Source: Verrucomicrobiota bacterium
GTDB lineage: Bacteria; Verrucomicrobiota; Verrucomicrobiia; Chthoniobacterales; UBA10450
Assembly (NCBI GenBank): GCA_041167265.1
Contig: JBEEHG010000071.1
Coordinates: 10,617-74,616, forward strand
DNA: 64,000 bases
Reading direction: 5' to 3'
A program made the position numbers and the translations under genes. A model generated the notes under the pieces. That model was not told where the DNA came from. It saw only the letters and a list, made by a program, of their open reading frames with translations, and ran no database searches. Below, in pieces: positions 40,197 through 63,478 of this stretch. How positions within the stretch are numbered: the stretch's first letter is position 1; every line of letters starts with the position of its first letter.

Positions 40197-40584
40197 CTTT
40201 TCGCGCCGTTTTTATTGACGACACTGTGATCGCGATAATCTCGTTTGCTTCCGCGCGCAGTTGTTTCACGCGCTTCTCTGCCGTTAAACCCAGTTCCACG
40301 AGGACGTCGATCCAATAGAGGGCTTCGTCGCACTCTTCTTCGACGATTCCCATTTTGGAAATGAAGTCGGCACGGGAGCGCCCGCGCACCGCGGCGCGAT
40401 AGTTCGCTCCAACGCTTGTTCCTGCACGCAACAGCTGTCGCCCGACGGTTTGCGCAACCATCGTCTTCGGCAAATTCTCGACAAGACGCACGCATCGAAC
40501 ACCAAATTGAAACGTCCTGTCTCGGAAATCGCTGGGGTGCGATGCTTCTCTTTCCGGTTTCTGATCTCCTGTTTCCGCTTTCAC
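40183..40584 (-). CDS. Four-helix-bundle protein of the 23S rRNA intervening-sequence (IVS) protein family
   Basis: FQFGVRCVRL...RQLLRAGTSVGANYRAA...RADFISKMGIVEEECDEALYWIDV. The GTG at 40584 overlaps the cysD stop (GTGA). The longer track ORF 40183..40839 overlaps cysD. Confidence 0.7.
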   Translation of the reverse strand: MKAETGDQKPEREASHPSDFRDRTFQFGVRCVRLVENLPKTMVAQTVGRQLLRAGTSVGANYRAAVRGRSRADFISKMGIVEEECDEALYWIDVLVELGLTAEKRVKQLRAEANEIIAITVSSIKTARKGAHK

Positions 40585-41396
40585 ATGAATCCTCGGGCGC
40601 GGAGTTTTTGCATCGCGTGCGGCTCGTAATGGTCCTGGGCGCGGCCGGCCCGCTCGCTCGAGCGCGTCGCTTCCAACTCGGCTATGATTTCCTCGATCGT
40701 GGCCGCGTTGCTTTCGATCGGATGCGTGATCGGCTGGCAGCCTAACGACCGATAACGTTTTCCGCCCCGCGCGAAATACAAAGGCGGGATTGGGATTTGT
40801 TCGCGCTGGAGGTAGCGCCAGATATCCACCTCCGTCCAATCAAGCAACGGCTGGACCCGGACATGTTCGCCCGGCGCGTTCTTGATCGCGAACTGTCCCC
40901 AGAACTGGGGCGGCTGTTGTTTGTAATGCCATTCCGAATCGGCGTCGCGCGGGGAAAAATAACGTTCCTTCGCGCGGGTCGGATCTTCGTCGCGCCGGAT
41001 CCCGGTGATGAGCGCGTCCCATTTGTGTTCCGCGAGCGCCTGCTTCAAGGCCACCGTCTTCAGCTCGTGCGTCACGGTGACCGGATCGTGCGTCTCGTAA
41101 CCGATCCCGCGCGCCCGCGCGTCGGTGTTCACCTTCACGATCAGGTTCAAGCCATATTGTTTGATCGCCCACTCGCGGAATTCGAGCATCTCGGGAAACT
41201 CGTAGGTCGTATCGATGTGGAGAAGCGGGTATGGAATTTTGCCAAAGAACGCCTTGAGCGAGAGCCAGAGAAGCACGTTGGAATCTTTCCCCATCGACCA
41301 CGGCATGGCCATATTGCGAAAGGCATGGTGCGCTTCGCGCAAAATAAAGATGCTGTGGTTCTCGAGCGCGTCGACGTGGGCGGCGGTGGTCATCAA
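40581..41396 (-). CDS. cysD: Sulfate adenylyltransferase subunit 2
   Basis: PP-loop PWSMGKDSNVLLWL. Full-length CysD-like sequence ending ...HYEPHAMQKLRARGFM. Confidence 0.92.
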   Translation of the reverse strand: MMTTAAHVDALENHSIFILREAHHAFRNMAMPWSMGKDSNVLLWLSLKAFFGKIPYPLLHIDTTYEFPEMLEFREWAIKQYGLNLIVKVNTDARARGIGYETHDPVTVTHELKTVALKQALAEHKWDALITGIRRDEDPTRAKERYFSPRDADSEWHYKQQPPQFWGQFAIKNAPGEHVRVQPLLDWTEVDIWRYLQREQIPIPPLYFARGGKRYRSLGCQPITHPIESNAATIEEIIAELEATRSSERAGRAQDHYEPHAMQKLRARGFM

Positions 41397-41437: not shown

Positions 41438-41479
41438 AGCCGGCAGACGGATTCGAACCGACGACCTGCTGATTACAAA
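41438..41479 (-). pseudogene. 3' fragment of a tRNA-Thr(UGU)-like gene (anticodon loop to acceptor 3' strand); candidate att remnant
   Basis: Minus strand reads TTTGTAA-TCAGC-AGGTC-GTCGG-TTCGAAT-CCGTC-TGCCGGC-T. There is no matching 5' acceptor, D-arm or 5' anticodon stem upstream, and the T-stem has one U-U mismatch. Confidence 0.6.
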
Positions 41480-41702
41480 TTTACACCCGCTCTCTGTCGA
41501 AAACGGCTCATCCCGGGAGAAAACGACGGAAACCAGCGCAAAACAAGGCAAATCGGGGGGAGAGATTTGTACAAAATCTTTCCAAAGAAACTCACCGAAG
41601 TCAGTTTATCACGGCTCGGCAAGTTGGAGGGCGACCAGCTGCGTGAAGTCGGGGCTCTCCCATCGCTGATGACCGTGAGGAACTCCGCCCGGAACCTTAA
41701 CG

Positions 41703-43784
41703 TTACCGCGCGGCGGTGGTGGGCGGGTCAATTGTGAAAACGTGGACCGCACGGAACTGCGATCGCTCCTGTCGGTTGGCGTCGTCTGGGGCGTGGCTCT
41801 CTCCAATTGAAAGCAACGACTCCACAACGATACCTCGCGCCAGGAGCGCGGCCTGTACGGCGCGCCCACGGTGTGCCGCCAGATCGACATTCGCCCGTTC
41901 TCCGCCGGAGGCATCCGTACCGGCTTCGAGAATGACTCGGTGTTGCCGAGTGTGTTTCAACTGCGCGGCGATCTCGTCGATGATTTCCCACGCCCGGCGC
42001 GATAGCTTCGCCGAATTTAACTCGAAAAGAATTGGTTCCCCGATGCGTTGAGCGGTTTCGGGCCTCTGCACTACAATCGTGGGCTTCTCGCCACTAGCCG
42101 GGTTCACGATAACCGTCGTTCCACCCGTAACGGGCACCAACTCCTTCTCTGATTTTAGTGCGCTTTCGCCCTTTTCCCCCTCTACGTGGGGAGGAACTTC
42201 TCCCTCCGACGGCGGCGGGGGCTCGGGTTCCGGTTTCTGCACCGCCACCGCGACATCGTGCGCCTTAAATTCATGAAGGATCACCATGGCCTGGCCCTGG
42301 GCCGCCCAGCTCTGGGCTGCACCACGAGTGGCGAGCTCACGGAAGTGATTTCGATCTTTTATCGGCTCGGCCGTGACGCCCATCGCGTCCAAGTCACCGC
42401 AGCGAAGAGCAAAGAGATTTCGCGAGCCAGTTTTCGCAATCGTCTCTTGGAGCAATTGCTTGTCGGACGCTGGGGGGGCGGATGCCGACGTTGGCTTGTC
42501 TAGTTCCTGGATGACGAGAGGCTTTTTCGCCTGCTGCGCCCACGCCTTGATGATTTGCTCTGCGGGCAGTCCGCTGCTCCCAAATAAGCGGCTCAGGATG
42601 CTCGGCTTAAGATTCTTCTGATCCACGACGATAGACGCTTCGCATATCGCCTTGTCCGCATCGCGGCGGAAGAGCAACTTCACGTTCGGGATCAATGCGG
42701 TGCCTTCGGGCGTGATAAAGGGCGACAGCAGTTCGAGAAGCTCGGCCGACAATTCGTTGTTCTTCGGCTCAGGCGCGACCACCACGATATCCACAGTGTT
42801 GATGGCCGCGGCCTTCTCTTTCGGTTTCGCGCAACTCACAAAGATCATGCCTGTCATCGCGAGCAAGAGCGGAGCGACAGCGATGAGAGCCGCTTGGCTG
42901 CTGTGCGGCACCGCAACAATTTCCTGATTCGGGTTCAGGGCGATCTGCGTGGCCTGAAAGTCGAGGCATGCGCAGAGCACTTCCGCTTGTGCTTCCGGCG
43001 TCTCTTGCTGCGTCGCGAGATCCATAGCTTCGTCATCTTGCAACGTACCACGGACAAGGAGTACCCAGTCGCCATTCGCGTTTTCCACAAGTTCCTGTTG
43101 GTTGACCGCGACCTTGCGGAGCTTGGAGGTCGGCTTGAACGACAACCGCCGCGCCTCCGTGAATCTAAGATCGCTATCGCCTCGGCAGTAGCGTCTCCAG
43201 TTCAGCGCGAGAAGGAGACGGAAAAAGACGTGCGCGCCAAGGTAGCCGGTCTTCCGGATGTGGAGAAACGCAACGAACGCATACGATACTGGCACGGCGA
43301 CCAAGGCGATGGTCGGATCCGCGCGCTCGATAAAGAAACCTGCTTTCACGAGCGCCGAAGTTGCCAATCCAATCATACCAATCCAGGACAAAACTCGACG
43401 CCAAATCGCGGGTTTGAAAATGCTCGCCCAGTTCTTTTCATCAGGCGTTCGGGCGCGATTTCGGTTAATGTAATATTCCTGCCACGCGGCGGTGCCAGAA
43501 TGCGCGAAGCCCGCCAGAAGCAGGTCGAGCAGGACGAAACCAGCCAGCGCCACGAGGTTTTCGAAAGCGCCGACGGCCCGTAGTTGCCACACCGAATAGA
43601 TTTCCAGGCTCAGCGCCAGGAAAAACCAGATAACGTCGGACGCGACGTTGTCGGTGTCGAAGCAGCCGGGGTGGGTAATCGAGCACTCACGGCTGCCCAG
43701 CGTTATCGGTCGCTTTCTGGTGCTGAGCCACGCACGCTTAACGGCGGCCCGGGGTTCGAATGTTGTGGTTGGGTCAATTATCAT
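41703..43784 (-). CDS. Multi-pass membrane protein with C-terminal OmpA/MotB-like peptidoglycan-binding domain
   Basis: ATG at 43784 (MIIDPTT...). There are 4-5 N-terminal TM helices, another TM near aa 330, a Pro/Glu linker, then FELNSAKL...VDLAAHRGRAVQAALLARG. Confidence 0.7.
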   Translation of the reverse strand: MIIDPTTTFEPRAAVKRAWLSTRKRPITLGSRECSITHPGCFDTDNVASDVIWFFLALSLEIYSVWQLRAVGAFENLVALAGFVLLDLLLAGFAHSGTAAWQEYYINRNRARTPDEKNWASIFKPAIWRRVLSWIGMIGLATSALVKAGFFIERADPTIALVAVPVSYAFVAFLHIRKTGYLGAHVFFRLLLALNWRRYCRGDSDLRFTEARRLSFKPTSKLRKVAVNQQELVENANGDWVLLVRGTLQDDEAMDLATQQETPEAQAEVLCACLDFQATQIALNPNQEIVAVPHSSQAALIAVAPLLLAMTGMIFVSCAKPKEKAAAINTVDIVVVAPEPKNNELSAELLELLSPFITPEGTALIPNVKLLFRRDADKAICEASIVVDQKNLKPSILSRLFGSSGLPAEQIIKAWAQQAKKPLVIQELDKPTSASAPPASDKQLLQETIAKTGSRNLFALRCGDLDAMGVTAEPIKDRNHFRELATRGAAQSWAAQGQAMVILHEFKAHDVAVAVQKPEPEPPPPSEGEVPPHVEGEKGESALKSEKELVPVTGGTTVIVNPASGEKPTIVVQRPETAQRIGEPILFELNSAKLSRRAWEIIDEIAAQLKHTRQHRVILEAGTDASGGERANVDLAAHRGRAVQAALLARGIVVESLLSIGESHAPDDANRQERSQFRAVHVFTIDPPTTAAR

Positions 43785-43827
43785 TGTTCGTGTTTTCACT
43801 TCGGGTGCCTTTCTTTGTTTGCTGCAT

Positions 43828-44049
43828 TTACTCGACTGTCGGTTCGTGAAGTAATCGGGGGTTGGCTCCGCGCCCCAGGTCGACGCCGAGACGGGCTGCG
43901 AAGTCGCCGTCCGACGGCTCGGGCGGCCAGAAGAAGAACAGCCGGCCACGCGGCCCGTCGGAGACGATGATCACGGCGTCCCAGGCGGCGCCGATGACCT
44001 TGGCCTCCACGCCACTGATCGAATCCGAGATTTGCATACAATTTTTCAC
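43828..44049 (-). CDS. Small hypothetical protein (uncertain)
   Basis: A 73-aa ORF just upstream of, and co-directional with, the OmpA-domain gene. The sequence (MQISDSISGVEAKVIGAAWDAVIIVSDG...) is not obviously junk. Confidence 0.3.
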   Translation of the reverse strand: MKNCMQISDSISGVEAKVIGAAWDAVIIVSDGPRGRLFFFWPPEPSDGDFAARLGVDLGRGANPRLLHEPTVE

Positions 44050-44171
44050 GGACCTTTCCTCCCCTCTTCCCTCTTTTGCCTCTGTTCGATCTTGTTGTCA
44101 ATAACGATCTTGACAGATATTATTGAAGTTTTGACTTTCCTCGGCCGCTTTTCTGCTGTGAAGTGATTTCC

Positions 44172-45185
44172 ATGGCCAAACGACATGCACCCGAAGCGGC
44201 GAAGCCTAAGATCAACGAAATCCTCCGGGAGCGGCTAACTCGACAGGAGGGAAACCTCAGACGCGCGGCAGATCGTCTGCAGTTAAACTATCAGAGGCTC
44301 CGCCAAGACCTTTCCGAAAATAATTTTTCCGCCGCGGACTTGCGGATTTTGTGCGATGCGGTCGGGCTCCCGACGGATCCCGTGAAGTTACGCGGTCAAT
44401 ACGAGTTTAAGTCCCGAGCAGGCGTCCGCGGCACTCGAAAGATCCACGAACGCAGACGCGCGATGCTCGCGGGCCCGCTAAAGCGCGACGGTTCCGGCCT
44501 TCCAGCCACCTTTGATTACTATGAAGCACGCCAGGAGCAGATCGCCCGCGTGGTCGATTCGGCCGGAGAAAACATTCAAGGGCTGTTTCACGGACTTGGT
44601 AAACCCGATTCTCTATTTCTTACCGTCATAGACGAGGAGCCTATTCATTGGCAGGAAGAGCAGGCCGCGACAGCACTTCCGCGCGTCGCCGAGGCAATAA
44701 TGAACGGCGCCATGATCGCATACCTGCATCCCAGCGACGAACTCTACGATGAATTGAAACGCTATGGATTTCCCGCCCTCGAGCCGGGTTTTCTCCGCGC
44801 TCGGTTCAAGGATTTCATCGACGTTCTCACGCTGCATCTGCCGAAGAAAGAAAGATCCCGGGTCGAGGAACAGGTAACCCGCATCGGTTTCAGGTGGCCA
44901 ACGATCTGCGTCCCCTATTTCCGGTTTGCTCTCTATCATCACAACCCGGGCGAGCACTCACGGGTGTGGGCGACCGTAACCGTGCCGATGATGAACCGCG
45001 CGAGGAGCACCGAGCGTCAAACGAATCGAGTGATTCTCGAACTCGACAAAACTGCCACCAGCTTCCTTCACGGATTATGTCGAAGGGCTGTCACATCTGC
45101 CCTAAAACAACCGACCGACGAAGAAGTGAGTCGGACAGCAGTCGCTGAATTATTCAGGCGGCTCTGTCCCGGCGCCAAGGAGTGA
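44172..45185 (+). CDS. Hypothetical protein with possible N-terminal HTH
   Basis: A 337-aa ORF from the ATG at 44172. The N-terminal INEILRERLTRQEGNLRRAADRLQLNYQRL looks HTH-like. No family recognised. Confidence 0.55.
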   Translation: MAKRHAPEAAKPKINEILRERLTRQEGNLRRAADRLQLNYQRLRQDLSENNFSAADLRILCDAVGLPTDPVKLRGQYEFKSRAGVRGTRKIHERRRAMLAGPLKRDGSGLPATFDYYEARQEQIARVVDSAGENIQGLFHGLGKPDSLFLTVIDEEPIHWQEEQAATALPRVAEAIMNGAMIAYLHPSDELYDELKRYGFPALEPGFLRARFKDFIDVLTLHLPKKERSRVEEQVTRIGFRWPTICVPYFRFALYHHNPGEHSRVWATVTVPMMNRARSTERQTNRVILELDKTATSFLHGLCRRAVTSALKQPTDEEVSRTAVAELFRRLCPGAKE

Positions 45186-45201
45186 GAAAATCAACCGCTC
45201 T

Positions 45202-46215
45202 ATGAAAACGAAAACTATAATCCTAAGCCTGGCCGCAATCTCTGTTGCGTTATTCGCGGCTCTATTAATCTCGCGCCGCGGCGCCGGGCCGGTTTCAGCC
45301 GGATCACCGCCGGATGTCAATGCGCATAAGCAGCGAATCGCTCTGACCCTCGCATTTCGTCCCGGCGTGGCCGTCGATCTGGGCCTCCTCCAGGCCATTG
45401 AACGGGGCGATCTTGCGAAGCAAGGCTTTGATATCACTCTGAGGCCATACGGCCGGGCCGACCTTATCTTTGCGGCGTTCAAGTCAGGAGAGATTCAAGG
45501 CAGCCTCGGCATTCCTCTCGAACCGCTTTTGGATCAAGCCACGCACGGGGCATATCCATGCCGTGGCTTTCTCGTTTGGTATTTTGATGACAAAACACCG
45601 TATGATGGAATGATCGCGCGCGCCGACGGCGGCGTGACCACAATCGACGCATTACAAGGGAAAGCGGTCGGTTCCCATCCGTCGAAACAAGTCACCTTCT
45701 TCGTCTCTCGTCTCTTCCCTGATTGCTCGGTGAGGCCTTACAACCCGGCCGCGCCGTTGGCGTCTCTGGACTCGGGCGACATGTCGGCCGTCTACGCGTT
45801 GGAACCTTTTCTGAGCGTTGCTCAGACGAACCCGAAATACCGGGTATTAGAGACAAACCTAATCAGCAAGCGGATCTTCAATAATGCCCGCGTTCCGGCC
45901 GCCTTGTCGGTTCTATCTTCGGATTGGATGAACAGCCATCCGACCGAAAGCGCCGCGTTTGTTCGTCTCGCGCGCGCTGCGTACCTCGCCGACGTAAACC
46001 ACCGCGATCAACAATTGGTCGTGAAGATCCTGACCGAGCCACGGTTCGGATTGGCTCCGGACGTTGCCGCGAAGGTCGTGGAACCGGCTTCCTCGCTTCC
46101 GGAGGATTTAGACAAGACTCAATTCACGCAGTTTGCCACGGCCCTAAAGGACGGAGGATTGCTTTCTGGGGACGTTGCTCTCGAAAAGTTGTTGTACGCG
46201 CCGCCAGCCAAGTAG
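45202..46215 (+). CDS. ABC transporter substrate-binding protein, NMT1/SsuA/TauA-like (NitT/TauT family)
   Basis: N-terminal membrane anchor or signal sequence and a periplasmic binding-protein-like sequence. Followed by the cognate ATPase and permease genes. Confidence 0.7.
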   Translation: MKTKTIILSLAAISVALFAALLISRRGAGPVSAGSPPDVNAHKQRIALTLAFRPGVAVDLGLLQAIERGDLAKQGFDITLRPYGRADLIFAAFKSGEIQGSLGIPLEPLLDQATHGAYPCRGFLVWYFDDKTPYDGMIARADGGVTTIDALQGKAVGSHPSKQVTFFVSRLFPDCSVRPYNPAAPLASLDSGDMSAVYALEPFLSVAQTNPKYRVLETNLISKRIFNNARVPAALSVLSSDWMNSHPTESAAFVRLARAAYLADVNHRDQQLVVKILTEPRFGLAPDVAAKVVEPASSLPEDLDKTQFTQFATALKDGGLLSGDVALEKLLYAPPAK

Positions 46216-46221
46216 TCGAAA

Positions 46222-46998
46222 ATGGATATTATTAAAGTCGAGAACGTTGCGAAAACGTTCCGGGGCGCTAATGGCAAAACCGTAGAGGTCTTACAGTCGG
46301 TATCTTTTGCCATTCCTGGACCAGCCATGGTGGGACTCCTCGGCCCCAATGGCGTTGGAAAATCTGTTACCTTGCGAATTCTTGCAGGATTACTGGAGCC
46401 GGACGCCGGGATTGTAACCATCAATGGCAAGCCACCGCACGATGGCCGGATCGGATTTGCACCTGCATCTAGTCCAGTTTTTTCTTGGCGCCGTGCGATA
46501 AACGACATTGCGATTGGGATGGAGCAAACCGGTATTTCGCGGAAGGAAAGGCATCGGCATGTGACCCAGTTCATGAATCGGTTTTCGATCGACCTCCCGC
46601 TCAACGAGCGGATTAATGGATTCAGCTCCGGCCAGAGGCAAATTGCCAATTTTGCTCGCGCCTTCGTTGGTCCGCACCCGCCAGCTGTAATCATCCTCGA
46701 CGAACCCTTGGCGGCCTTGTCCCCGACGGTTCGCGAGGAGGTGCTCCGCTACCTCGGCTCGGTCAGGGAATCTATGCTGGGCGTTGTATTCATCGCGGTC
46801 CATTCGCTTCTCGATGCCGCTCGTCTTTGCGACTGGCTCATTCCCCTCAAGCAACGGCCGGTCACGATAAACCAGAACGACCTAATCCGTGTGAATATGC
46901 CGGCTCCCCGTTCTCAAAGTCTCGCGACGTCGTCGGAATTCCAACAATTGCTCAAGCAGATGGAAACCATTTATCCAGCAATGGCTCCGACGGTATGA
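46222..46998 (+). CDS. ABC transporter ATP-binding protein (NitT/TauT-type)
   Basis: Walker A GPNGVGKS, signature FSSGQRQ and Walker B VIILDEP. Confidence 0.85.
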   Translation: MDIIKVENVAKTFRGANGKTVEVLQSVSFAIPGPAMVGLLGPNGVGKSVTLRILAGLLEPDAGIVTINGKPPHDGRIGFAPASSPVFSWRRAINDIAIGMEQTGISRKERHRHVTQFMNRFSIDLPLNERINGFSSGQRQIANFARAFVGPHPPAVIILDEPLAALSPTVREEVLRYLGSVRESMLGVVFIAVHSLLDAARLCDWLIPLKQRPVTINQNDLIRVNMPAPRSQSLATSSEFQQLLKQMETIYPAMAPTV

Positions 46999-47753
46999 GT
47001 TTCGCGACCCTTAGGGCCAAATTCGGTCTGTCGATCCTCGGAGTTGTAACCACGTTGTTGATATGGCAGGCAGTCGCATTTGCGGCCGGTGACGCTGGGA
47101 CGCTGCCCGGACCCGTGGCAACGGTAATTGCAGCGTGGAAACTGCTCATCGGCGGATATTGGCGAGACCTGCTCGCGACATCGACCCGCGCCTGTGTTGC
47201 TTTATTGTTGGCACTGGTGGTCGGCGTTCCCAGTGGACTGGTTCTAGGCTGGTCTCAGAGACTCTATGATTCCTTTCGCGGGGTTCTGAGCTTCCTGCGG
47301 TGCCTGCCAGCTTATTTGTTGATTGTCGTGTTCGCAGCCGTCGGTCATGGCGGCGAGACCGCTCGCATAGCGACTGCCGCACTGGCGAGCGCGTGGATAA
47401 TCACCGATGAATGCGCGGAATCGTTACGCACTTTGCCCAGCGACCGAATTGACGTGTTGCGAGCATTACGCGCGGGCAACTGGTTCATTCTCTCGCGAGC
47501 CTTGTTCTTCGAGGCGTTAGGCCGAACAATTGTACCATCCGCAAAAACGGCCGTCGGCATCTGCTTTGTGGTGACGACAGTTGTTGAGGCTCTCGCCATT
47601 CCTCCGTACGGCGTGGGGGCGCGTCTCTTAAGCTTCTTTGCCGGGGCGGAACTGGCGCCGGTATTTGGATTCTTGTTGCTGACCGGTCTGGCAGGCGTCG
47701 TATTGAGCGCTGTAGTACATGGCACGGCGCGGAAGATTATTTTTTGGTCGTGA
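46995..47753 (+). CDS. ABC transporter permease (NitT/TauT-type)
   Basis: The ATG at 46995 overlaps the ATPase stop (ATGA). About 6 TM helices. Confidence 0.8.
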   Translation: MSFATLRAKFGLSILGVVTTLLIWQAVAFAAGDAGTLPGPVATVIAAWKLLIGGYWRDLLATSTRACVALLLALVVGVPSGLVLGWSQRLYDSFRGVLSFLRCLPAYLLIVVFAAVGHGGETARIATAALASAWIITDECAESLRTLPSDRIDVLRALRAGNWFILSRALFFEALGRTIVPSAKTAVGICFVVTTVVEALAIPPYGVGARLLSFFAGAELAPVFGFLLLTGLAGVVLSAVVHGTARKIIFWS

Positions 47754-47809
47754 GTTCTTTGCGAAAACGGCATTCACATCCTTTTTGGCTAGGCCAGTGC
47801 GGGACGCCC

Positions 47810-48175
47810 TTGAGATTTGTTCTCTTTGAACACGTTCTCCCTTTCGGCCCCCCCCATTTTGACTTGATGCTCGAGATGGGGCCGCGTCGCAGGCTTTGGG
47901 GACTACAGACCACATCCGATCCGACTGTGAGCCGGCCCGTTACTGACTGGCAGAATCATGGCACTCATCGCCGCCGGTATTTATCCTTTGAAGGCGACAT
48001 CGGGCAGGGCAGGGGATCAGTAAGAATAATGGACGCGGGCCGGTACGTTGCCAAAATCAGCGGAGAGGGTATCCGAATAGAGTTCGCAGGACGCTTAGGA
48101 CGGCGATCATTCGAAATATTTCCCAACAGTTCTGAAAGTCACTTGCGGGCTCACTTCTCTGAAACGACGCACTAA
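47810..48175 (+). CDS. Stand-alone LigD_N-like (DNA ligase D 3'-phosphoesterase-like) domain protein
   Basis: RFVLFEH...PHFDLMLE...W...HRRRYLSFEGDIGQGRGSVRIMDAGRY. The start is uncertain (TTG at 47810, or TTG at 47744). Confidence 0.55.
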   Translation: MRFVLFEHVLPFGPPHFDLMLEMGPRRRLWGLQTTSDPTVSRPVTDWQNHGTHRRRYLSFEGDIGQGRGSVRIMDAGRYVAKISGEGIRIEFAGRLGRRSFEIFPNSSESHLRAHFSETTH

Positions 48176-48482
48176 GGCGGGCTAGTGCTCCAGGTGTCCG
48201 GACATGAAGGTCCAGAGTGATCATCACAGGGCGCGTATCATTGCTTTACGGGAATCGGCACCCCCTTGGGGGGCTGCCCCGTCGGGCCACCGTCACTGAT
48301 CTCTCGGCGGCGATCAGGAAACCCCCTTGATCATCTTCTCCCGGTCAACTCAGGCTACCGAAATTGGTGCGAGGGGGGAAACGGGGGCCATACGGAAATC
48401 TGCGCCAGGTCAGGTGTACGAGTGCTTCAAAAACATTTTTCTCTAACTAATTGCGGCGAAAGCCCCCTTTGGCTTCCCTTCG

Positions 48483-48694
48483 CCCCAAAAAGAGCGGCGC
48501 GACTCCCCAAAAAGGGGAATCTCCAGGAAGCCGGATCCCAAAACGCACCCTCAAAGAGCCACCGCTTTCCAAAGGGAATCCCCAAGTGCGAGCACGCCCC
48601 AAAAGAGAGCCCCGAAAAACTGGCTCCCGAAAAGGCATCCCCAAAACACGCTCCCCAAAAAGGGAACCCCAAAAGACGTCGAGCTTCCCCAAAA
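48483..48694. repeat. Array of about 12 degenerate CCCC(A/G)AAA(A)G short repeats (iteron- or centromere-like)
   Basis: Copies start near 48483, 48505, 48537, 48580, 48597, 48610, 48626, 48639, 48653, 48667 and 48687. The last eight are spaced 13-20 bp apart, mostly 14 bp. Confidence 0.8.
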
Positions 48695-48696
48695 CC

Positions 48697-48710
48697 CCGC
48701 CCCGGGGCGG
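48697..48710. repeat. Perfect 14-bp GC-rich palindrome CCGCCCCGGGGCGG closing the repeat array
   Basis: Read directly from the sequence; it is self-complementary. Confidence 0.85.
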
Positions 48711-48907
48711 CTCAATCGTTAACCCATAAGTCTTTTGCACCAAATCGCCGGGGGCGGCGAGATAGCGATCTCCTTGGCCGTCCGAGACGCGCGAAATGAC
48801 GTAAATGCTTATTCAAAAGGGTCTTACTCTCGATGGGCGAGGATAGATGAAGAAATCCCTCCGTTGTCTTCGCGCAAAAAAAAGCGTCGCAAGTTCAGTT
48901 TTTTCCT

Positions 48908-49348
48908 TTGCTGCGGCGCTTTTTGACCAAGAAGACCAACGTGACAGCGGTATACATAAAACCCCTGACCTCAGCCGAAACCGGAGGGGCTCCGTACATA
49001 CGGGCGAAGGTGGCAGCGAAAGCCACCGGTCTTGGGCTAAGCACCATCAGGCGCATTGGAACCCGCCGGTTCGGAAACGCGGACTACGTCCGAGTCCGCG
49101 ACATCAACGCGTTCATCGTTGGAGAAATACCAGACGAGATTGCGGGAGCTGGCGAGCGACACGTGACCGTAAATCCCCCTGACGAATCCGTTCTCCCTTC
49201 GTCACTGACTCAGGCGGGAAATCCCCCTTTTTCGAATTTTTCCCAAGTGGTGCCCCCCAAGGACAACAAAAAAAACCCCAAAACAGTGCAACCGGCAGAG
49301 CTCAGTCGGCGGCATCACACCAACGCAGGGGCGACCCTGAAGAGCTAA
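48908..49348 (+). CDS. Putative excisionase/MerR-like HTH DNA-binding protein (start uncertain)
   Basis: YIRAKVAAKATGLGLSTIRRIGTRRFGNADYVRVRDINAFI resembles Xis/AlpA-type HTH proteins. The track start is TTG. Confidence 0.45.
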   Translation: MLRRFLTKKTNVTAVYIKPLTSAETGGAPYIRAKVAAKATGLGLSTIRRIGTRRFGNADYVRVRDINAFIVGEIPDEIAGAGERHVTVNPPDESVLPSSLTQAGNPPFSNFSQVVPPKDNKKNPKTVQPAELSRRHHTNAGATLKS

Positions 49349-49369
49349 AACACCTAGAAAGAAACAACC

Positions 49370-49657
49370 ATGGAGACTGAAACCAAAAAAATCACTGAGG
49401 TGACCGGGACCAAACGAATAATGGTCAACAACCTCGACTATGTAAAAGTGGGCATGGCGGAACTTGTCGAACCGTTCTCCAAATACGGGCAAATCAAGGA
49501 AGCGTTCCTGTCAAAACCAACGGCGGCGGGGAACAAAAATGCCGGCTGGGCAATACTCGTCGTAGATGACGAGACCGCCGATAAGATTCTCGGCGCCACC
49601 ATCGTAATCGCCAATCGGGTGGTCCGCGTCAGATTGGCGAAGCCAAAAGAGGAATAA
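49370..49657 (+). CDS. Single-domain RNA-recognition-motif (RRM) protein
   Basis: 95 aa with RNP2-like IMVNNL and RNP1-like NAGWAILVV. The overall beta-alpha-beta-beta-alpha-beta length fits an RRM. Confidence 0.55.
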   Translation: METETKKITEVTGTKRIMVNNLDYVKVGMAELVEPFSKYGQIKEAFLSKPTAAGNKNAGWAILVVDDETADKILGATIVIANRVVRVRLAKPKEE

Positions 49658-49862
49658 CCCAGGAACAGCCAGCTTCCGGCGGGCGATGGGGCCCGCCGGA
49701 GGCTGGCCGTCGCCACGCAGCCCACATTCCGGGAAAAGGCCGACTCATGACATTGTCAACCCCTCGCCGCCCCGACGGCAAGGACAACCGGGAAGTCTGC
49801 GAATGAAGATCGGCGCAGAAAACACCTCCCTGCCGGCAAAGGGGGGCAAGGGAAAACAGCGG

Positions 49863-50447
49863 ATGGCTCGCATCACGGCTAAGACCCTGGACTCTCTGTT
49901 GCCAAACGCCGCTGCCTCGTACCCGCGCCACAGCCACGCTGAACTGATTGAAAAGGGGTTAGAGGCGCTGATGGGCAATCCGCAGCCAATCGTCTACTTC
50001 TGTGCACAAGACCCGGAGATCCAGATTCAGACAGCCGCCACACTCGCAGCATTCGAGCAACGGATCGAGAACAATGCGAAGGCTATAACCCGGGCGAAGT
50101 TCGCAGATGCAAAAGATCAGGAAGCCGGACGAGAAGCCGCAAAAGCATTGCTCGTCCTAAAAGATGATATTCGGAAGAGCGTTAAGGGAATCAGCGAAGA
50201 CGCGAATCAATTCCGGAATCTGGTGGCAACGCTGTCACCGTTATTGCCGATCGCCGAACAGGGCCTTAAACGCTGGCTCGATTTTGTCCAAGATATCAAG
50301 AAAAGGGAGGCCGCCTATAGGAGCAATGGGGAGCAGGCAAGAGCGGACGCGCAAAATGAATTCGCTCAGCAAATTCTAAAGGAAACCTCCGCGCTTCAGG
50401 AAATCATGCGAGCGCTAACCCCCGCGGACGGCCCGCCATCGCCATGA
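49863..50447 (+). CDS. Alpha-helical hypothetical protein (start uncertain: 49686, 49803 or 49863)
   Basis: The ORF ends in an ATGA overlap with the next gene. Helical, charged sequence. Confidence 0.5.
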   Translation: MARITAKTLDSLLPNAAASYPRHSHAELIEKGLEALMGNPQPIVYFCAQDPEIQIQTAATLAAFEQRIENNAKAITRAKFADAKDQEAGREAAKALLVLKDDIRKSVKGISEDANQFRNLVATLSPLLPIAEQGLKRWLDFVQDIKKREAAYRSNGEQARADAQNEFAQQILKETSALQEIMRALTPADGPPSP

Positions 50448-51328
50448 TGAAGCTGGCTGATCTCCCTTTGGAAATTCTGCAAAGGCTGGATGGGTTGTGG
50501 GGACGAATCCGGTATCAGGTCGACAAGGAGGACAAAGATCACGAAAAGAAAATTCTCCATACCCCAGGAAACTATAACTGCGTAGACCAGACCCCGGCCG
50601 CGTTCGCGGCGGCGGTCCTTCGGAACGCCGCCCGTTATTGGGAGAGCCGGAAAGGAAAGGTCGGGAAACGCACTTCGATTATTTTTCACGAATTCATCTA
50701 TTCGTCGTCGGAGGCGGCCTTCTTGTCGAAAACGGAACGCGCCGCAATCGGGGCAGAGATTGTTTCGCTCTTTCCCGACGTTCCCATCCGGCTGGCCTGG
50801 CACGAAGACCCCGTGACCGGGAGAAGCGACTTGCACGTTTTGTTCGGTTATCACACCGAGGAAAATCCCCCCCGAGTCTTGCTCAGCGCCCGTTATGGAG
50901 CCGGAAAACGCTCCTTTTCATTTACCGCATTCATTACCGAAAAACGGATCAACGAGAGCTTGAATCAAGCGCGAGGCCCGATCGAGAACCGGCTCGTCAC
51001 CACCGCCGAGGTTGGCCGGGAACGTCGTCCCAAACGAAACCGCGAAAAGCAGACTCCAGCAGACATCCTGATCACGATTCTTGGGCCGGATTGGGATGGG
51101 GAGCGGAAAAACCTGATCCCCATCCTGAGAAAGAAAAAGATCGCCGTGACTCGTCATAACGACGAGTTCTTGAGCGTGGTCCTGCCCGGCCGCAAGAGGG
51201 CGGTTCGCCTCTATCTGGACGAACTCGTTCAGGCATATGACCGCGCTAAACAGCGGCAAATTGCGGCGGCCAAAACGGCCGCCAGAAAGAAGAGACAGCT
51301 CGGCAGCCAGGCGGCTGACGACCTGTAA
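50444..51328 (+). CDS. Hypothetical protein, weakly relaxase/mobilisation-nuclease-like
   Basis: AWHEDPVTGRSDLHVLF resembles an HxD...HxH relaxase metal motif, but one His is missing. Basic C-terminal tail. The call is weak. Confidence 0.35.
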   Translation: MMKLADLPLEILQRLDGLWGRIRYQVDKEDKDHEKKILHTPGNYNCVDQTPAAFAAAVLRNAARYWESRKGKVGKRTSIIFHEFIYSSSEAAFLSKTERAAIGAEIVSLFPDVPIRLAWHEDPVTGRSDLHVLFGYHTEENPPRVLLSARYGAGKRSFSFTAFITEKRINESLNQARGPIENRLVTTAEVGRERRPKRNREKQTPADILITILGPDWDGERKNLIPILRKKKIAVTRHNDEFLSVVLPGRKRAVRLYLDELVQAYDRAKQRQIAAAKTAARKKRQLGSQAADDL

Positions 51329-51383
51329 ACGGTTGCGTCAACGAATGGTAAACCATCTCGTTAACGTCGAAACGTACCAGGCA

Positions 51384-51478
51384 GTTATATCCCGTAAACA
51401 AAAGCGTAAACGCTTTGTTGACCGGTTCGTTTACACGAACCTCGGGATATAACAGCCATGGTTAGGGTCGACCCCTAA
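51384..51478. repeat. Cluster of inverted repeats (candidate oriT or regulatory structure)
   Basis: An 11-bp perfect IR, GTTATATCCCG (51384-94) with CGGGATATAAC (51443-53), encloses GGTTCG-TTTACA-CGAACC. A TTAGGG-TCGA-CCCCTAA near-palindrome follows at about 51462-78. Confidence 0.6.
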
Positions 51479-51956
51479 GACCCGCAGCCACGCTCGAAGA
51501 CGCTCGCTGGTTGAAGGCGCCAAAGCTAGTCGCGGCGCAGACGCATTTGCGCCCGTCCGTCCGCTCGCGATGCTACGAAAAGACAGCCGGACGGTCGTAG
51601 AACGCGCGCAACCTCACCAGCAATTGGACCCGCCCAAAAGCTGCGATCCGGCTTGAGACTTGGCAAGGCCGGATGCGGTCGTGCCGCAAATTGACGTCCC
51701 GTGCTCCCCGGGCCGTCCAACCAAAATCGCGGCCCGAAACGCCAACCCGAGCGGGGAAGTCTAAACACCGTCAGAAATGGAAATGCCTGTGCTGGCCTCA
51801 GTGCGGAGGGTTGCCGCGCTGGCGCACGGCAACGCTGGCAGGGCTTGTTTCAATTTGCCTCCCGTTCTTCGACCTGTCCTGGGTTTCTTGCCTGCTTGCA
51901 TCTTGGGATTGGTTCGCCGCCGACTGGCGCTCAAGCCGGAAAACATCGAAATCCCA

Positions 51957-52277
51957 ATGGAAAACACAACATCAAACAAACAGAGAACCTTTCTTTCAAC
52001 AGACGGCTTGGTTCGTATCACAACCACAACGCGACCGCGGCGCTGGCCACCACACTCCTTCCCCGTCGTCATCGTCACGCTAAAACCCCGAAAAGGAACA
52101 CGTATCCTGCCCTTGCCTGAAGCCGGGGTAGAATGGATGCCGCGGTACAGCGAAGTCCTGTCGCTGCTTTTGCAAATGGGGTTAACCGTAACCACAGCGC
52201 CGTCGGACAAACCAGAAGCGCGGCGTCTGCGATTCGAAAAACTCAACGCCTGGCGACACCGGAGGAATCGCCGATGA
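51957..52277 (+). CDS. Small hypothetical protein
   Basis: The stop overlaps the AAA+ ATPase ATG (ATGA at 52274-77). The start is uncertain (ATG at 51957 or upstream at 51777). Confidence 0.4.
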   Translation: MENTTSNKQRTFLSTDGLVRITTTTRPRRWPPHSFPVVIVTLKPRKGTRILPLPEAGVEWMPRYSEVLSLLLQMGLTVTTAPSDKPEARRLRFEKLNAWRHRRNRR

Positions 52278-53179
52278 ACAGTGCAGCCCGACCGGCTCGA
52301 TACCAACTCTCAGCCTTCCACGAGCTGCGCGAGTTAGCGGCCGACTACTACGACTTTGATTGGCGATCCCTCCCAGTGTCACCGCGAATGAACGTTCTCC
52401 TCTGTTCGGGAACCGGTACCGGGAAAACATTCCTATCAGCACACCTGGCACGCGAGCTGGGAATCCCACGCCTGCTCTTAACATTCGGAAATTGGATTGT
52501 GAGTGGTGCGCGCGCTCGGGGAGGACTCCAGACGTTGCCACTGTTGTATAGTTTCATCGACCGATACGAACGAGGAATCATCGCGCTCGACGAAATCGAC
52601 AAGATCGCTTCCCCAGACGGGACAGGCGAGTGGACGCGAGCCGTCCAGTTGGAAATATTTTCTGTCTTGGACAAGGTCGTCTTGCCCGGGATCGTGGAAG
52701 CCGGACAGCACGGCGAGGACGGGCCACTATTTACACTGAGGCGAGAGGACATCGAGCGCCGGTTCGCTCGGGGCTACTTCATCGTCGGTAGCGGGGCGTG
52801 GGAGCACCTATGGCGCGCGCCAAGCGCGGCTGGCTTCATCCCGCCTTCCAATGCCGCTCAGCGGCCGACATACGACCAGCTCTTGCAAACGATTCCGGCA
52901 GAAATTCTGAACCGATTTCGCGGAGAAGTTTTATACCTAGGACCGTTGACTAAGGCAGACTACGAATCTCTCCTTGAGGAGACGTTGCATCGCCTTCCGC
53001 AGGAATTCGCGCCGTTCGTTCAAGACGGGGCAGCAAAATCGCTGAATGAAGCGGTTCGGACGCAAAGAGGGTATCGTTGGATCGAGGAATTGGTTGCGAC
53101 AGCGATTCGCGCTGTCCGGACCTGTCAACTCAACAAGCTTCAAATAGGGCCAGCGCGTGAAATGCTCGATCCGAGTTGA
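52274..53179 (+). CDS. AAA+ family ATPase
   Basis: GGAGGA Shine-Dalgarno 8 nt upstream of the ATG at 52274. Walker A CSGTGTGKT and Walker B IIALDEIDK. Confidence 0.8.
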   Translation: MNSAARPARYQLSAFHELRELAADYYDFDWRSLPVSPRMNVLLCSGTGTGKTFLSAHLARELGIPRLLLTFGNWIVSGARARGGLQTLPLLYSFIDRYERGIIALDEIDKIASPDGTGEWTRAVQLEIFSVLDKVVLPGIVEAGQHGEDGPLFTLRREDIERRFARGYFIVGSGAWEHLWRAPSAAGFIPPSNAAQRPTYDQLLQTIPAEILNRFRGEVLYLGPLTKADYESLLEETLHRLPQEFAPFVQDGAAKSLNEAVRTQRGYRWIEELVATAIRAVRTCQLNKLQIGPAREMLDPS

Positions 53180-53335
53180 ACTGAGGGCGGCTTTGCCGAC
53201 GCCAACACGCAAGTCTGCTCCTTCTTCGAATGACACAGTTGATAGAATTGTCGCTAGTTCCGAGCGGTACGCATTTGCCTGTCGGCCAGATGCGCTGGCA
53301 CCTCTTCACTGTTCCAATCTGGGATAGTCGAGTAC

Positions 53336-53878
53336 ATGAAATGTGAACCGCCAGAACAAAAACAGATTGGAGTCTTCCTGCGGGATAGCTCGCATCCCTT
53401 TCGGCCTTACGGCGCTTGTGTCATCCGCATGCAACCGCTTTCCAATTCGCGGGTCGTGTCGATAGATTCACACGCTTTGCGTATAGCCTTTGTTGCTTCG
53501 GAGGTGCGGATTCTTGCCGCCGCGATGAATCGCGCGCATCCGCGTCTACGGACTGACCTGAAGACGCCGATCTACGATGTGAACCGCGGTTACGTTCCGG
53601 GCAAACGGGACGTTCCATTTCTCATCGCGCTCGCGGCGCCCGATAGAACGGTGAAGATAGGAATTGAGACGGTAGCCTCGGTCAGACATCCCGTCGTGGA
53701 GCTCCGATGGAAGGCTGGATCGGCGGTTCGAAAAGCCGGAGCTCACGTGCGATGGATGCCGACGTGGGCCGAGTTTAGAATTTTATACGCGGAGTTCTCG
53801 ATTCCGCCGCACTCCGCGCAAGCCGAAGCACCGTTCTCGAAAACTGTTCGGACGAAAAGCGCCGGACCATACCGATGA
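53336..53878 (+). CDS. Hypothetical protein
   Basis: A 180-aa ORF whose stop overlaps the next ATG (ATGA). No family recognised. Confidence 0.5.
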   Translation: MKCEPPEQKQIGVFLRDSSHPFRPYGACVIRMQPLSNSRVVSIDSHALRIAFVASEVRILAAAMNRAHPRLRTDLKTPIYDVNRGYVPGKRDVPFLIALAAPDRTVKIGIETVASVRHPVVELRWKAGSAVRKAGAHVRWMPTWAEFRILYAEFSIPPHSAQAEAPFSKTVRTKSAGPYR

Positions 53879-54192
53879 TCACGATCAACTTGGCTCCGCT
53901 GCACCCTGTGACCGTAGTCGCAAACGATCAGCGTCGATATCACTTTGCGCGCTTCATCGCGATGTCTGGGCGCTTCATGGTAGTTGAATTACGAAAGACT
54001 CCGGAGGACTCCGGCTTTTTGGTGACTCACGTCATTCTCGACCTCTTTGGTCTACTAGGCGTCGTTCGCGTCGGAACCGTCTCTATTCAGATCGACTGTG
54101 TTAACGTGTCGTTAACGGGAAAGCGCTTCTTACGATTGCAGCCGACGGACGCCCTAGCGCTTAAGATCCGAATTACACCCTCGCACAAGTAA
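53875..54192 (+). CDS. Hypothetical protein
   Basis: A 105-aa ORF, translationally coupled on both sides. Confidence 0.45.
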   Translation: MITINLAPLHPVTVVANDQRRYHFARFIAMSGRFMVVELRKTPEDSGFLVTHVILDLFGLLGVVRVGTVSIQIDCVNVSLTGKRFLRLQPTDALALKIRITPSHK

Positions 54193-54506
54193 TGATTGCG
54201 GATTTGGACACCCCGATGTGTTGCTCGGCGGCAGAACTTGCGGAGCAGGAATACATTGGCCTTCTCAAACCATCACGAAAGCAAATCGCAAAGATGATTG
54301 AGCAAACCTTTGATCAGATCTGGCACGCCCGGCATGTGCAATTGGGCCGGCCCGAACCGGGGGAGGAATCTGCCATTGCAATTGAATCCAAGTATCCAAA
54401 AGAGTTCTTGACGCTATGTGACGATTGCCTCCTTCGCGCTGAGGGGCGGCTGGGTGCCTTGCGATGGGTACTCCACGGTGCGTTCATCGAAAATTACGAC
54501 ACCTAG
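54192..54506 (+). CDS. Hypothetical protein
   Basis: A 104-aa ORF whose ATG immediately follows the upstream TAA. Confidence 0.45.
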   Translation: MIADLDTPMCCSAAELAEQEYIGLLKPSRKQIAKMIEQTFDQIWHARHVQLGRPEPGEESAIAIESKYPKEFLTLCDDCLLRAEGRLGALRWVLHGAFIENYDT

Positions 54507-54632
54507 GTCGCGTTTTTGGTACACCAACGGGCGCAGCAAATTTGTTAACAACCCGTAGGAGGCCGCGAAATCACTTCGACAAAAACGTCTGATATATGCG
54601 AGACTTTGATCCCATAGAAGGGATTCAAAACT

Positions 54633-54848
54633 ATGGCGAACGATGCTCCAGGAATGCGGGGCCACCGGTCTCGGAATCAAGATGGTGAGCTGCGTGACAA
54701 ACGTGACGACACGCACATGGGCACTATCGAGAAAAAGTACGATCGCGACTTCGGCGTCCGCAGCGATATGCAGCTTGGCACATATCTGCGTGAGAAGGGA
54801 ATCAAATCGCTCAACGACCTGATTCACAGCAAACGCGGGCGCAAATAA
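54633..54848 (+). CDS. Small basic hypothetical protein
   Basis: A 71-aa ORF with a charged, non-repetitive sequence. Confidence 0.35.
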   Translation: MANDAPGMRGHRSRNQDGELRDKRDDTHMGTIEKKYDRDFGVRSDMQLGTYLREKGIKSLNDLIHSKRGRK

Positions 54849-55210
54849 CAGAACTGATTCGCATCGCCGATCGCCTTTTTCCAATGTGCCTGGGCCGTCG
54901 GCGCAGGAGGATTTGCACGGGCATGAATTTGCCCGGTTCAGGATGTTTTGACGAACTCGGCGCGCACCGACACCCCACACCTTCTCGGCGATCAAAAGAG
55001 TTGCGAAAGCCCAGCGACTGCTGCGCATACATTAGAAGCGAATAACCCCGGCAGCGCGGCGAGGCCGCGCCACCGGAGTCTGTTCCCCCCAGAACATTTA
55101 GAAATTAAGGGGCTTTAATTTGTGGTCAATAAGGGCCCCCAAAAAACGTTCTCCTAGAGGCCGTGCATAATTGTCGCTCGACTCGGCAATAACGCACTCC
55201 CCGCCCTCCA

Positions 55211-56161
55211 TTAAAGTTCTCCATTCTCGATCCAAGCTTTTATTCGCGTGAATTTTGAGTCCGGCCAGCCCCGGTCCACTTTGGTCCGGAGCAGGTCCGC
55301 TAAGGCCTGTTCTCGAGTGTACCGGGATTGTTTGAGACCACCCGCCGCGATAAACATAGGGATGAGCTCCGAGTCAGCCGCGGCAGGCTTTTCGTGGAGT
55401 AGCGCGGCTTGCAGACCCACGGAAGGATCGGCCCCGGCCTGCAAAAGCATTTCCACTATTTCTTTCGAATTGGTTTGCAGCGCTTTGTATCGTCCCGGGA
55501 TCTTTTCGCGGCGGGCCTCGTAGGCGTCGTAATTCCAGGCGCCGTAATCCAAAATGGCGACCAAAGGATGCCCGTTGTTTTTGTCGGAACCATTGGGATC
55601 GGCTTTCGCGTCCAGAAGCAACCGGACGATTTCCGGCGCGGTCGCGCCGTTCTTGGCGGCCATCGGTAGCGGACGGTAACCGTTGTCCGTGATGTTCGGA
55701 TTCGCGCCGACATCGAGCAAGGCTTTGACACACTGCGTCGCTCTGAGCCGCACAGCATGAATCAGGGCCGGCGGGCGCGGGTTCGCGCTATTTATACTGG
55801 CAGCGGCTCCGTTGCCCAAAAGAACTTTGAGAACTTCTGCCTGTCGAGTATCCACCGATCGGAATCGTTCCACTTCTTCAGGCGAAGGGTTATAGCCGTT
55901 GAATGCTTGGGAAACCGGCTCGATGGCGAGGTAGAGAAAGTCGTTGTCATCTTTCTTCGAGATAAGCGGCTTCACTGTGGAAAGCTGGAGCAGCGTTCTG
56001 AGATCTTCACTTTTTCCGCTAACGACCGCTTGTCGGATCCGGGCGCGATCATCAGCGGCCCAGGCCGATCGAGCATGGAGCGTTACCATCAGCATGATTG
56101 CCAAGCATGGTCGCCAAAGATTGCCAGCGGGGTTGCGTGGAGTCGTTGATCGGGGGCGCAT
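55211..56161 (-). CDS. Secreted ankyrin-repeat protein
   Basis: Signal peptide ...MLMVTLHARSAWA/AD. Repeated ankyrin-type LL(D/Q)xGA(N/D)P(N/S) motifs (LLDVGANPN, LLDAKADPN, LLQAGADPS). Confidence 0.8.
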   Translation of the reverse strand: MRPRSTTPRNPAGNLWRPCLAIMLMVTLHARSAWAADDRARIRQAVVSGKSEDLRTLLQLSTVKPLISKKDDNDFLYLAIEPVSQAFNGYNPSPEEVERFRSVDTRQAEVLKVLLGNGAAASINSANPRPPALIHAVRLRATQCVKALLDVGANPNITDNGYRPLPMAAKNGATAPEIVRLLLDAKADPNGSDKNNGHPLVAILDYGAWNYDAYEARREKIPGRYKALQTNSKEIVEMLLQAGADPSVGLQAALLHEKPAAADSELIPMFIAAGGLKQSRYTREQALADLLRTKVDRGWPDSKFTRIKAWIENGEL

Positions 56162-56226
56162 CGCGTGAGCATAGCACTACCGATAGAGAGGTGTAAAGCC
56201 CCCATTTTGTTTCGGATTCTAGCGGC

Positions 56227-56448
56227 ATGCAGCCGCGTATCCTGCCGCACTTAGTGAAGCGATTGAGGAGACTTCGTGAGGCGGCAAATCTGACGCAAGA
56301 ACAGTTCGCAGAGCAAGCGGGCCTGTCATACAAATATTACCAGCACATCGAAGCCGGGCGAAGGCAGGATCTGCGACTTTCGACTTTGGAACGCCTTGCT
56401 GACGCGCACCGGATTTCCGTGGCTCAGCTCTTACGTCCGGGACGCTAA
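56227..56448 (+). CDS. XRE-family helix-turn-helix transcriptional regulator
   Basis: LRRLREAANLTQEQFAEQAGLSYKYYQHIEAGRR. 73 aa. Confidence 0.85.
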   Translation: MQPRILPHLVKRLRRLREAANLTQEQFAEQAGLSYKYYQHIEAGRRQDLRLSTLERLADAHRISVAQLLRPGR

Positions 56449-57849: not shown

Positions 57850-58189
57850 TCAACCAGCGATCGGCTCGGCTTTGCAACGTGGAATGATCAATTACCCGGA
57901 TGAACTCCCCAAATTCATCGAGAAAGTCGAAAAGGCGCTCCGATTGCTCCGAGAAAAGCGCATCAAAGATCTCCTCGAAATCGTAGTTAGGCCATTGCGC
58001 AAACCCCAAATGCTCTCTCCAAAAATTCGACTCCTGTCTTCGGACTACGTCACCGCGCATAGCCCCGAGCGGAGAACTCCACCAAATCGCCACGCCAAGG
58101 TGCGTGCTGCCTTCGATCTCTCCTTTAAGATCTGTTCGTTCGATAAACGGTCCGATCAACGGTGAGGAAATGGCAAGCTCTGGGAACAT
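57707..58189 (-). CDS. Hypothetical protein (only the first ~115 aa look protein-like)
   Basis: MFPELAISSPLIGPFIERTDLKGEIEGS...DRWLNE, followed by an Arg/Gly-rich tail that overlaps the next ORF. Confidence 0.45.
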   Translation of the reverse strand: MFPELAISSPLIGPFIERTDLKGEIEGSTHLGVAIWWSSPLGAMRGDVVRRQESNFWREHLGFAQWPNYDFEEIFDALFSEQSERLFDFLDEFGEFIRVIDHSTLQSRADRWLNEGLVSRGFSLGRARTPRRRYHSPGLGLPAEGENAMVGNALYRRGLS

Positions 58190-58240
58190 TCTGGGAAAGC
58201 TTAATACTTGATGTCGCCGCTAATAGAATCGGCGCTCATT

Positions 58241-59368: not shown

Positions 59369-59610
59369 GAAATCGAGGTGCCAAGCTGATTCTATCGGAC
59401 AGAACGAGCGTCGCCAAGCCGCCAGCCGCCCATGGAAGGCGGTGAAAGCCGCCCCAAACACCAGTTTTCCTTTGATTATCCGCATTGAATCGGTTAACCA
59501 CGAGCCATTGTACAATCGCGTTGACGTAATTTTTCAGGCACCCCCCCGCCTCGCTGCTGAGTCGTCACGATTCCTGCCGCGAATTCCGACGCACGGCCCT
59601 CTTCTTTGAT

Positions 59611-61194: not shown

Positions 61195-61202
61195 ACAACC
61201 CA

Positions 61203-62597: not shown

Positions 62598-62605
62598 CGG
62601 GGCCA

Positions 62606-63445: not shown

Positions 63446-63478
63446 TAAGCCGTTCTAAGTGCACCGCGCCTCGCGCTC

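Follow-up and report, generated by a model that had tools for sequence, protein, structure and literature searches.

The 64-kb window analysed here corresponds to positions 10617-74616 of contig C71, in a draft genome of 82 contigs (4.0 Mb, 59.7% G+C). A short stretch of its minus strand at 41438..41480 (C71 52054-52096), which reads ATTTGTAATCAGCAGGTCGTCGGTTCGAATCCGTCTGCCGGCT from 41480 to 41438, resembles the 3′ half of a tRNA-Thr. It consists of an anticodon loop (TTTGTAA), a 3′ anticodon stem (TCAGC), a variable loop (AGGTC), a T arm (GTCGG-TTCGAAT-CCGTC), an acceptor 3′ strand (TGCCGGC) and a discriminator T; the loop, stems and T arm of the tRNA-Thr-like half described in a first-pass annotation of this DNA are thus all present on the minus strand as it had read them. 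The fragment it reported is real, but the extent it gave, 42 nt ending at 41479, is too short: the sequence repeated elsewhere (see below) is 43 nt long and includes one further 5′ base, 41480. Downstream of the fragment lie cysD, encoding sulfate adenylyltransferase subunit 2 (40581..41393, minus strand; NCBIfam NF003587, 348.5 bits vs. a cut-off of 195), then cysNC and glycosyltransferase genes. A small gene for a '23S rRNA-intervening sequence protein' (40228-40520, minus strand; PF05635, 1.7e-16) sits between cysD and cysNC; the stretch of about 440 nt that carries it is found here and in congener G016, and is missing from most other aligned congener loci (a gap at query positions 1201-1642).

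No tRNA was called at the fragment by ARAGORN, and the Rfam tRNA model (RF00005) gave it a score of 16.2 bits (E = 6.1), compared to a gathering score of 29. The Rfam alignment forces a pseudo-acceptor, in which the upstream GCGGGUG is matched to the acceptor 3′ strand with the help of non-standard pairs, and the predicted fold of the fragment is no more stable than that of shuffled sequence (z = 0.02). A working mini-tRNA made up of the fragment and the upstream GCGGGTG was rejected on the basis of these two values. The fragment is therefore a tRNA half and not a functional tRNA gene, the outcome anticipated when it was first described as an orphan. It should be noted that ARAGORN made a single call in the window, a 96-nt 'tRNA-Pyl (cta)' at 47210-47305 (plus strand) inside the ORF of an ABC permease (46827-47753); given its length and coding context, this call is almost certainly a false positive.

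When the whole genome was scanned with ARAGORN, an intact tRNA-Thr(UGU) was found at C71 82205-82280 (minus strand), 7.6 kb past the end of the window and 30.1 kb from the fragment, with which it shares contig and strand. The fragment is identical to positions 31-73 of this tRNA at 43 of 43 nt, the block of identity running from the last base of the 5′ anticodon stem to the discriminator base, and the corresponding core within the intact gene (C71 82250..82208) is a direct repeat of it. An exact copy of a given 43-mer is expected about 1e-19 times by chance in this genome; the core occurs in the fragment, in the intact tRNA and otherwise only in an overlapping contig end. A U50-U64 mismatch in the T stem is shared by the intact tRNA, and is therefore a property of the real tRNA rather than a sign of decay in the fragment.

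Immediately next to the intact tRNA is a gene for a tyrosine integrase (C71 80995-82065/82134, minus strand; Pfam Phage_integrase PF00589, 3.8e-13, 50 bits vs. a cut-off of 27.1), which starts about 140 nt after the tRNA. Its reading frame is intact and the catalytic R, HxxR, H and Y residues are visible. Alignment with relatives places the true start at a conserved AGGATG, giving a protein of 356 aa; an exact look-up of the protein, beginning at either the ATG or a GTG, returned no identical record. The first-pass annotation had foreseen that an integrase would accompany an intact tRNA-Thr(UGU) sharing the 3′ segment, and that the island would lie at higher coordinates. The tRNA was indeed recovered from this contig, oriented like the fragment and beside an integrase, and the two lie on the side predicted for the island.

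The interval between the two repeats measures 30,108 bp (C71 52097-82204). The part within the window occupies 41481..64000, and another 7.6 kb extends past the window end, up to the integrase and the regenerated tRNA-Thr(UGU). Its G+C content is 55.8%, compared to 59.7% for the genome. Reading from the tRNA, the integrase is followed by four unmatched ORFs, a radical SAM protein, a DndH/HerA/FtsK-like ATPase and a GHKL ATPase, then by a 279-aa ORF, a second GHKL ATPase, a second radical SAM protein and several unassigned ORFs. An ankyrin-repeat protein, an AAA ATPase with weak IetA matches and a block of small unassigned genes come next, and the order ends with a LigD_N-like protein, an ABC transporter set and a 748-aa membrane protein with an OmpA domain; weak PDC-S11 matches were obtained for one of the several unassigned ORFs. 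The ABC transporter set (44163..47753, plus strand) comprises two proteins of 337-340 aa, an ATPase and a permease. The second of the 337-340-aa proteins has a weak, sub-threshold NMT1-like match, on the strength of which it may be a binding protein. The last island gene (41703..43949, minus strand) encodes a multi-pass membrane protein whose C-terminal domain matches Pfam OmpA (5.9e-10) and NCBIfam OmpA-like families.

The genes of the island had initially been described as including mobilisation-like and defence-like ones. The defence-like modules are present: the island holds two separate sets of radical SAM and GHKL ATPase genes, one at window positions 59611-62597, within a stretch of defence-like cargo that includes neighbouring genes (58241..63445), and one beyond the window (locus L001, 9479-13668), where the second GHKL ATPase and second radical SAM gene are accompanied by the DndH/HerA-like ATPase. 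PADLOC matched this ATPase to DndH over the C-terminal region only (8.4e-43). The mobilisation-like label, on the other hand, did not hold, as no relaxase or T4SS component was matched in the island with Pfam, NCBIfam or PHROGs, and the sole FtsK/TrwB/HerA-like ATPase is the one whose best match is the C-terminal part of DndH. No Pfam family for a capsid, portal, terminase or tail protein was found in island ORFs of at least 100 aa, and a PHROGs search with ten genes returned nothing structural; many island ORFs have no match of any kind, and very divergent phage genes could escape Pfam and PHROGs. The attL junction had no match among IMG/VR viral contigs, and no excisionase was matched by Pfam in the island even at E values up to 1. 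Remnants of att sites inside the island were no longer than 11-15 nt, which is the level expected by chance, and there is thus no recognisable tandem array.

We compared the site with that of congeners, locating the cysD orthologue in 14 of them and obtaining the surrounding DNA from 11. In 6 of these 11 (G017, G008, G003, G001, G005 and G006), cysD is preceded, at a distance of 30-90 nt, by an intact tRNA-Thr(UGU), and island DNA is absent from the site; the upstream flank could also be aligned in three of the six. The final 1.37 kb of contig C46, which ends in the same tRNA, can be aligned in G017 and G001 as far as the tRNA end; the alignment of the cysD flank begins at the first base of the core, and the two flank alignments overlap over exactly the 43-nt core (L006 2355-2397 in G017). 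The last 300 nt of the island had no match in the G017 and G001 loci. The comparison with island-free relatives called for by the first-pass annotation therefore has a clear outcome: tRNA-Thr(UGU) directly abuts cysD in six congeners, and this junction is the unoccupied attB.

The sequences that follow the core differ between its two copies. In the intact gene it is followed by CCAGCTTATCGCTCTCGCGATAAGCT, that is, an encoded CCA and a perfect 10-bp hairpin, and in the fragment by TTGTTTTTCC. The hairpin, AGCTTATCGC-TCTC-GCGATAAGCT (L001 17562-17591; C71 82178-82207), has no T tract; it may be a processing signal, a terminator or a protein-binding site. Simple promoter and terminator scans around the two att sites gave nothing usable, the lone 'terminator' falling inside the tRNA. 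None of the tRNAs of the six empty-site genomes encodes CCA, GCCGGCT being followed by CTG, CTC, TTG or CAC, indicating that the CCA of the regenerated tRNA is derived from the island.

On the inner side of the fragment, a non-coding arm (41481..41702, minus strand) separates it from the OmpA-domain gene and is a candidate P arm. It contains one copy of the octamer TGGAAAGA (41577-41584), the only one in the 64-kb window, and two more copies lie in the same orientation between the hairpin and the integrase start. Judging from this distribution, the octamer, a motif picked post hoc, represents a candidate set of arm-type integrase sites.

In a sample of 150 genomes from the order, the integrases closest to that of the island show 45%, 35% and 34% identity, and they adjoin tRNA-Arg(ACG) in G143 and G049 and tRNA-Thr(UGU) in G014. 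A search of genome contigs for related loci gave only an irrelevant 28% match, and soil metagenome contigs yielded integrases that are 88-95% identical. In two of these contigs (L045 and L046), an 88% identical integrase is encoded right after a tRNA-Thr(UGU) with the same CCA; the hairpin is kept except that one G-C pair has become G-T, and hardly any differences occur in the arm as far as the integrase ATG. Beyond the integrase stop codon, these two loci show no DNA or translated similarity to the island and carry NUDIX, GT4 and DegT genes. A third contig (L047) has a fragment of a 95% identical integrase followed by DUF4238 and NERD genes. The fourth, L048 (Ga0073936_10028308, 867-1183), contains a tRNA-Thr 3′ fragment without a 5′ half, located about 140 nt ahead of an integrase gene of the same family that is cut short by a stop after 45 codons, with three TTGGTAA repeats at the place that corresponds to the TGGAAAGA arm; the locus is either a tandem-array junction or a decayed or free attP. 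Its tRNA fragment begins at the same base (ATTTGTAATCAG...) as ours, and this common left boundary of the identical block speaks for strand exchange within the anticodon loop or beside it.

Other congeners were found to hold different DNA at the same place. Inserts of 2.1, 2.6, 4.1, 6.1 and 13.4 kb lie between tRNA-Thr(UGU) and cysD in G016, G009, G002, G018 and G013, respectively, and no PF00589 gene is present in any of these five. A degenerate tRNA 3′ remnant was seen upstream of cysD in G018, and 5′ tRNA fragments upstream of the tRNA in G009 (C4:395872-415711), where an integrase adjoins one of them, and in G002 (C1:2455998-2468038). In G007 (C1:88231-168558), an 80-kb interval is bounded by a 45-nt 3′ repeat and contains no PF00589 gene. 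Neither DNA nor protein similarity was detected between the island and the same-site inserts of G016, G002, G013, G018, G009, G007 and G011, and G014 resembles the island solely through its integrase. The presence of these unrelated inserts in other congeners identifies the tRNA-Thr(UGU)/cysD site as a hotspot.

The physical linkage of the two repeats was also seen in a 163-kb JGI metagenome contig, Ga0467077_0000041 (L043), retrieved via the flanking GT4 gene. The order there is GT4, a 229-aa ORF, the tRNA, the integrase, island genes, the OmpA-like gene, the fragment and cysD, and two loci taken from this contig are exact substrings of C46 joined to reverse-complemented C71, with matching coordinates. 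In that assembly, too, 30.1 kb thus separate the tRNA from the fragment on a single molecule, although the assembly may derive from the same reads. In our genome, C46 and the end of C71 share an overlap of exactly 127 nt, and both contigs stop at the last base of the core. In a de Bruijn assembly, a contig stop of this kind implies a branch in the graph, such as island-free molecules would give. The break at the core end may therefore reflect a mixture of island-bearing and island-free cells in the sample.

We are highly confident that the fragment is the attR core produced when the island's own tyrosine integrase recombined attP with the attB in tRNA-Thr(UGU). The exact repeat, the integrase, the empty sites and the borders bear out the original suggestion of a distal att repeat left by a tRNA-targeting integrase. 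In the mechanism that we propose, a circular element with an attP bearing the 3′ part of tRNA-Thr(UGU) would recombine with the chromosomal tRNA gene (attB), with the island's tyrosine integrase as the catalyst. The attB junction is predicted to read tRNA 5′ half, core, then TTGTTTTTCC (also given as TTGTTTTTCCAGTGG), and the attP junction GGGTGTAA, core, CCAGCTTATCG (also given as GAGCGGGTGTAA, core, CCAGCTTATCGC). Strand exchange would take place in the anticodon loop, and an identity block starting at position 31 would put the element in the 'anticodon-centred' attP class. Island DNA would then restore the 3′ part of the tRNA and add the encoded CCA and 10-bp hairpin, while the original 3′ part would be moved 30,108 bp downstream, to where it now lies 44 nt upstream of cysD. 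The position of the crossover, the arm-type role of TGGAAAGA and present-day mobility are what we infer from these arrangements.

Two other origins for the fragment were weighed. Were it a decayed tRNA-Thr pseudogene, born of a local duplication without site-specific integration, ARAGORN and Rfam would be expected to stay silent as they did here. Such an origin is, however, hard to reconcile with the 43/43 identity, the sharp edge at the anticodon stem-loop with no trace of a 5′ half, the integrase adjoining the intact copy and the related fragment in L048 that begins at the same base; with the flanks of the empty sites meeting exactly at the core, it is effectively refuted and we give it a negligible probability. 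It is also very improbable, if marginally less so, that the tRNA end and the fragment part were wrongly joined in a metagenome bin. The draft is indeed in 82 contigs, with 3.9% estimated contamination and a contig break located at the tRNA. Both copies of the repeat nevertheless lie inside the single contig C71, and the 43-nt repeat alone cannot have caused a false join because, at 127 nt, the contig overlaps exceed it in length. The same arrangement is seen in the 163-kb JGI contig, although possibly from the same reads, and independent metagenome contigs repeat the tRNA-CCA-hairpin-integrase junction.

A more serious alternative accepts the repeat as real and sees the island as a fixed, immobile remnant, with an integrase that no longer excises and 30 kb that have become a mosaic of later indels. 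The lack of a detected excisionase, relaxase, T4SS or phage structural gene points in this direction, as do the integrase-less inserts of 2-13 kb in several congeners, which have the look of decayed islands at the same site. Against it stand the perfect repeats, the intact frame and catalytic residues of the integrase, the presence of TGGAAAGA on both inner arms, and the C46/C71 break at the core end despite a 127-nt overlap, which fits the existence of island-free molecules. We consider an immobile remnant a real possibility, a little short of an even chance. The reading that we can advance only tentatively, and hold to be somewhat doubtful, is that of a still-active, conserved integrase-attP module, specific for tRNA-Thr(UGU), that crosses over within the anticodon loop, supplies a CCA and hairpin of its own and shuttles varied, for the most part undescribed cargo, including the radical SAM/GHKL sets, among soil Verrucomicrobiota.

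Whether mobile or not, the island is a textbook tRNA-integrated genomic island, and its biology is in this sense unsurprising. Such islands are catalogued in Islander (Hudson, Lau and Williams 2015; PMC4383910), where 2083 of 3919 belong to the 'anticodon-centred attP site A' class, the att sublocation classes being those of Williams 2002, as cited in PMC4383910. All the elements by which Islander defines an island are found here, namely an intact tDNA, a fragment in the same orientation on the same replicon and an integrase inside the interval (PMC4383910). The empty-site comparison agrees, the interval being missing in relatives and the flanks joined at the core. As in Islander islands, the tDNA is split and then restored by island DNA, the displaced 3′ fragment is in direct orientation, a tyrosine integrase lies by the regenerated tRNA and the identity block starts at the anticodon stem-loop. 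Our case differs in its host, a soil Verrucomicrobiota draft genome, in its mostly unannotated cargo and in an integrase without a relative above 45% identity in 150 genomes of the order. Integrase-bounded, defence-like genes (DndH/HerA-like, GHKL, radical SAM and IetA-like AAA) are shared with defence islands and integrative mobilisable elements; however, none of the known defence systems was matched in full, PADLOC giving partial matches, and neither a relaxase nor an oriT was confirmed. The relaxase, coupling protein and T4SS required of an ICE were likewise not seen. With tRNA-integrating phages (P4, P22 and HK022-type lambdoid integrases), the island has in common recombination between attP and an attB in the 3′ half of a tRNA, core repeats and, probably, flanking arm-type sites; it differs from temperate phages and prophages in that neither Pfam, applied across the island, nor PHROGs, applied to ten genes, revealed a capsid, portal, terminase or tail family.

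With the repeat, the borders of a 30,108-bp mobile island are known to the base. All of the window from position 41481 onwards is consequently horizontally acquired cargo, including the candidate radical SAM/GHKL defence loci, while cysD, cysNC and the glycan genes, on the low-coordinate side, belong to the native chromosome. The trio of integrase, attP and attB, coming from a poorly studied phylum, is a candidate genetic tool. For the genus as a whole, our data mark the tRNA-Thr(UGU)/cysD junction as a recurrent integration hotspot.
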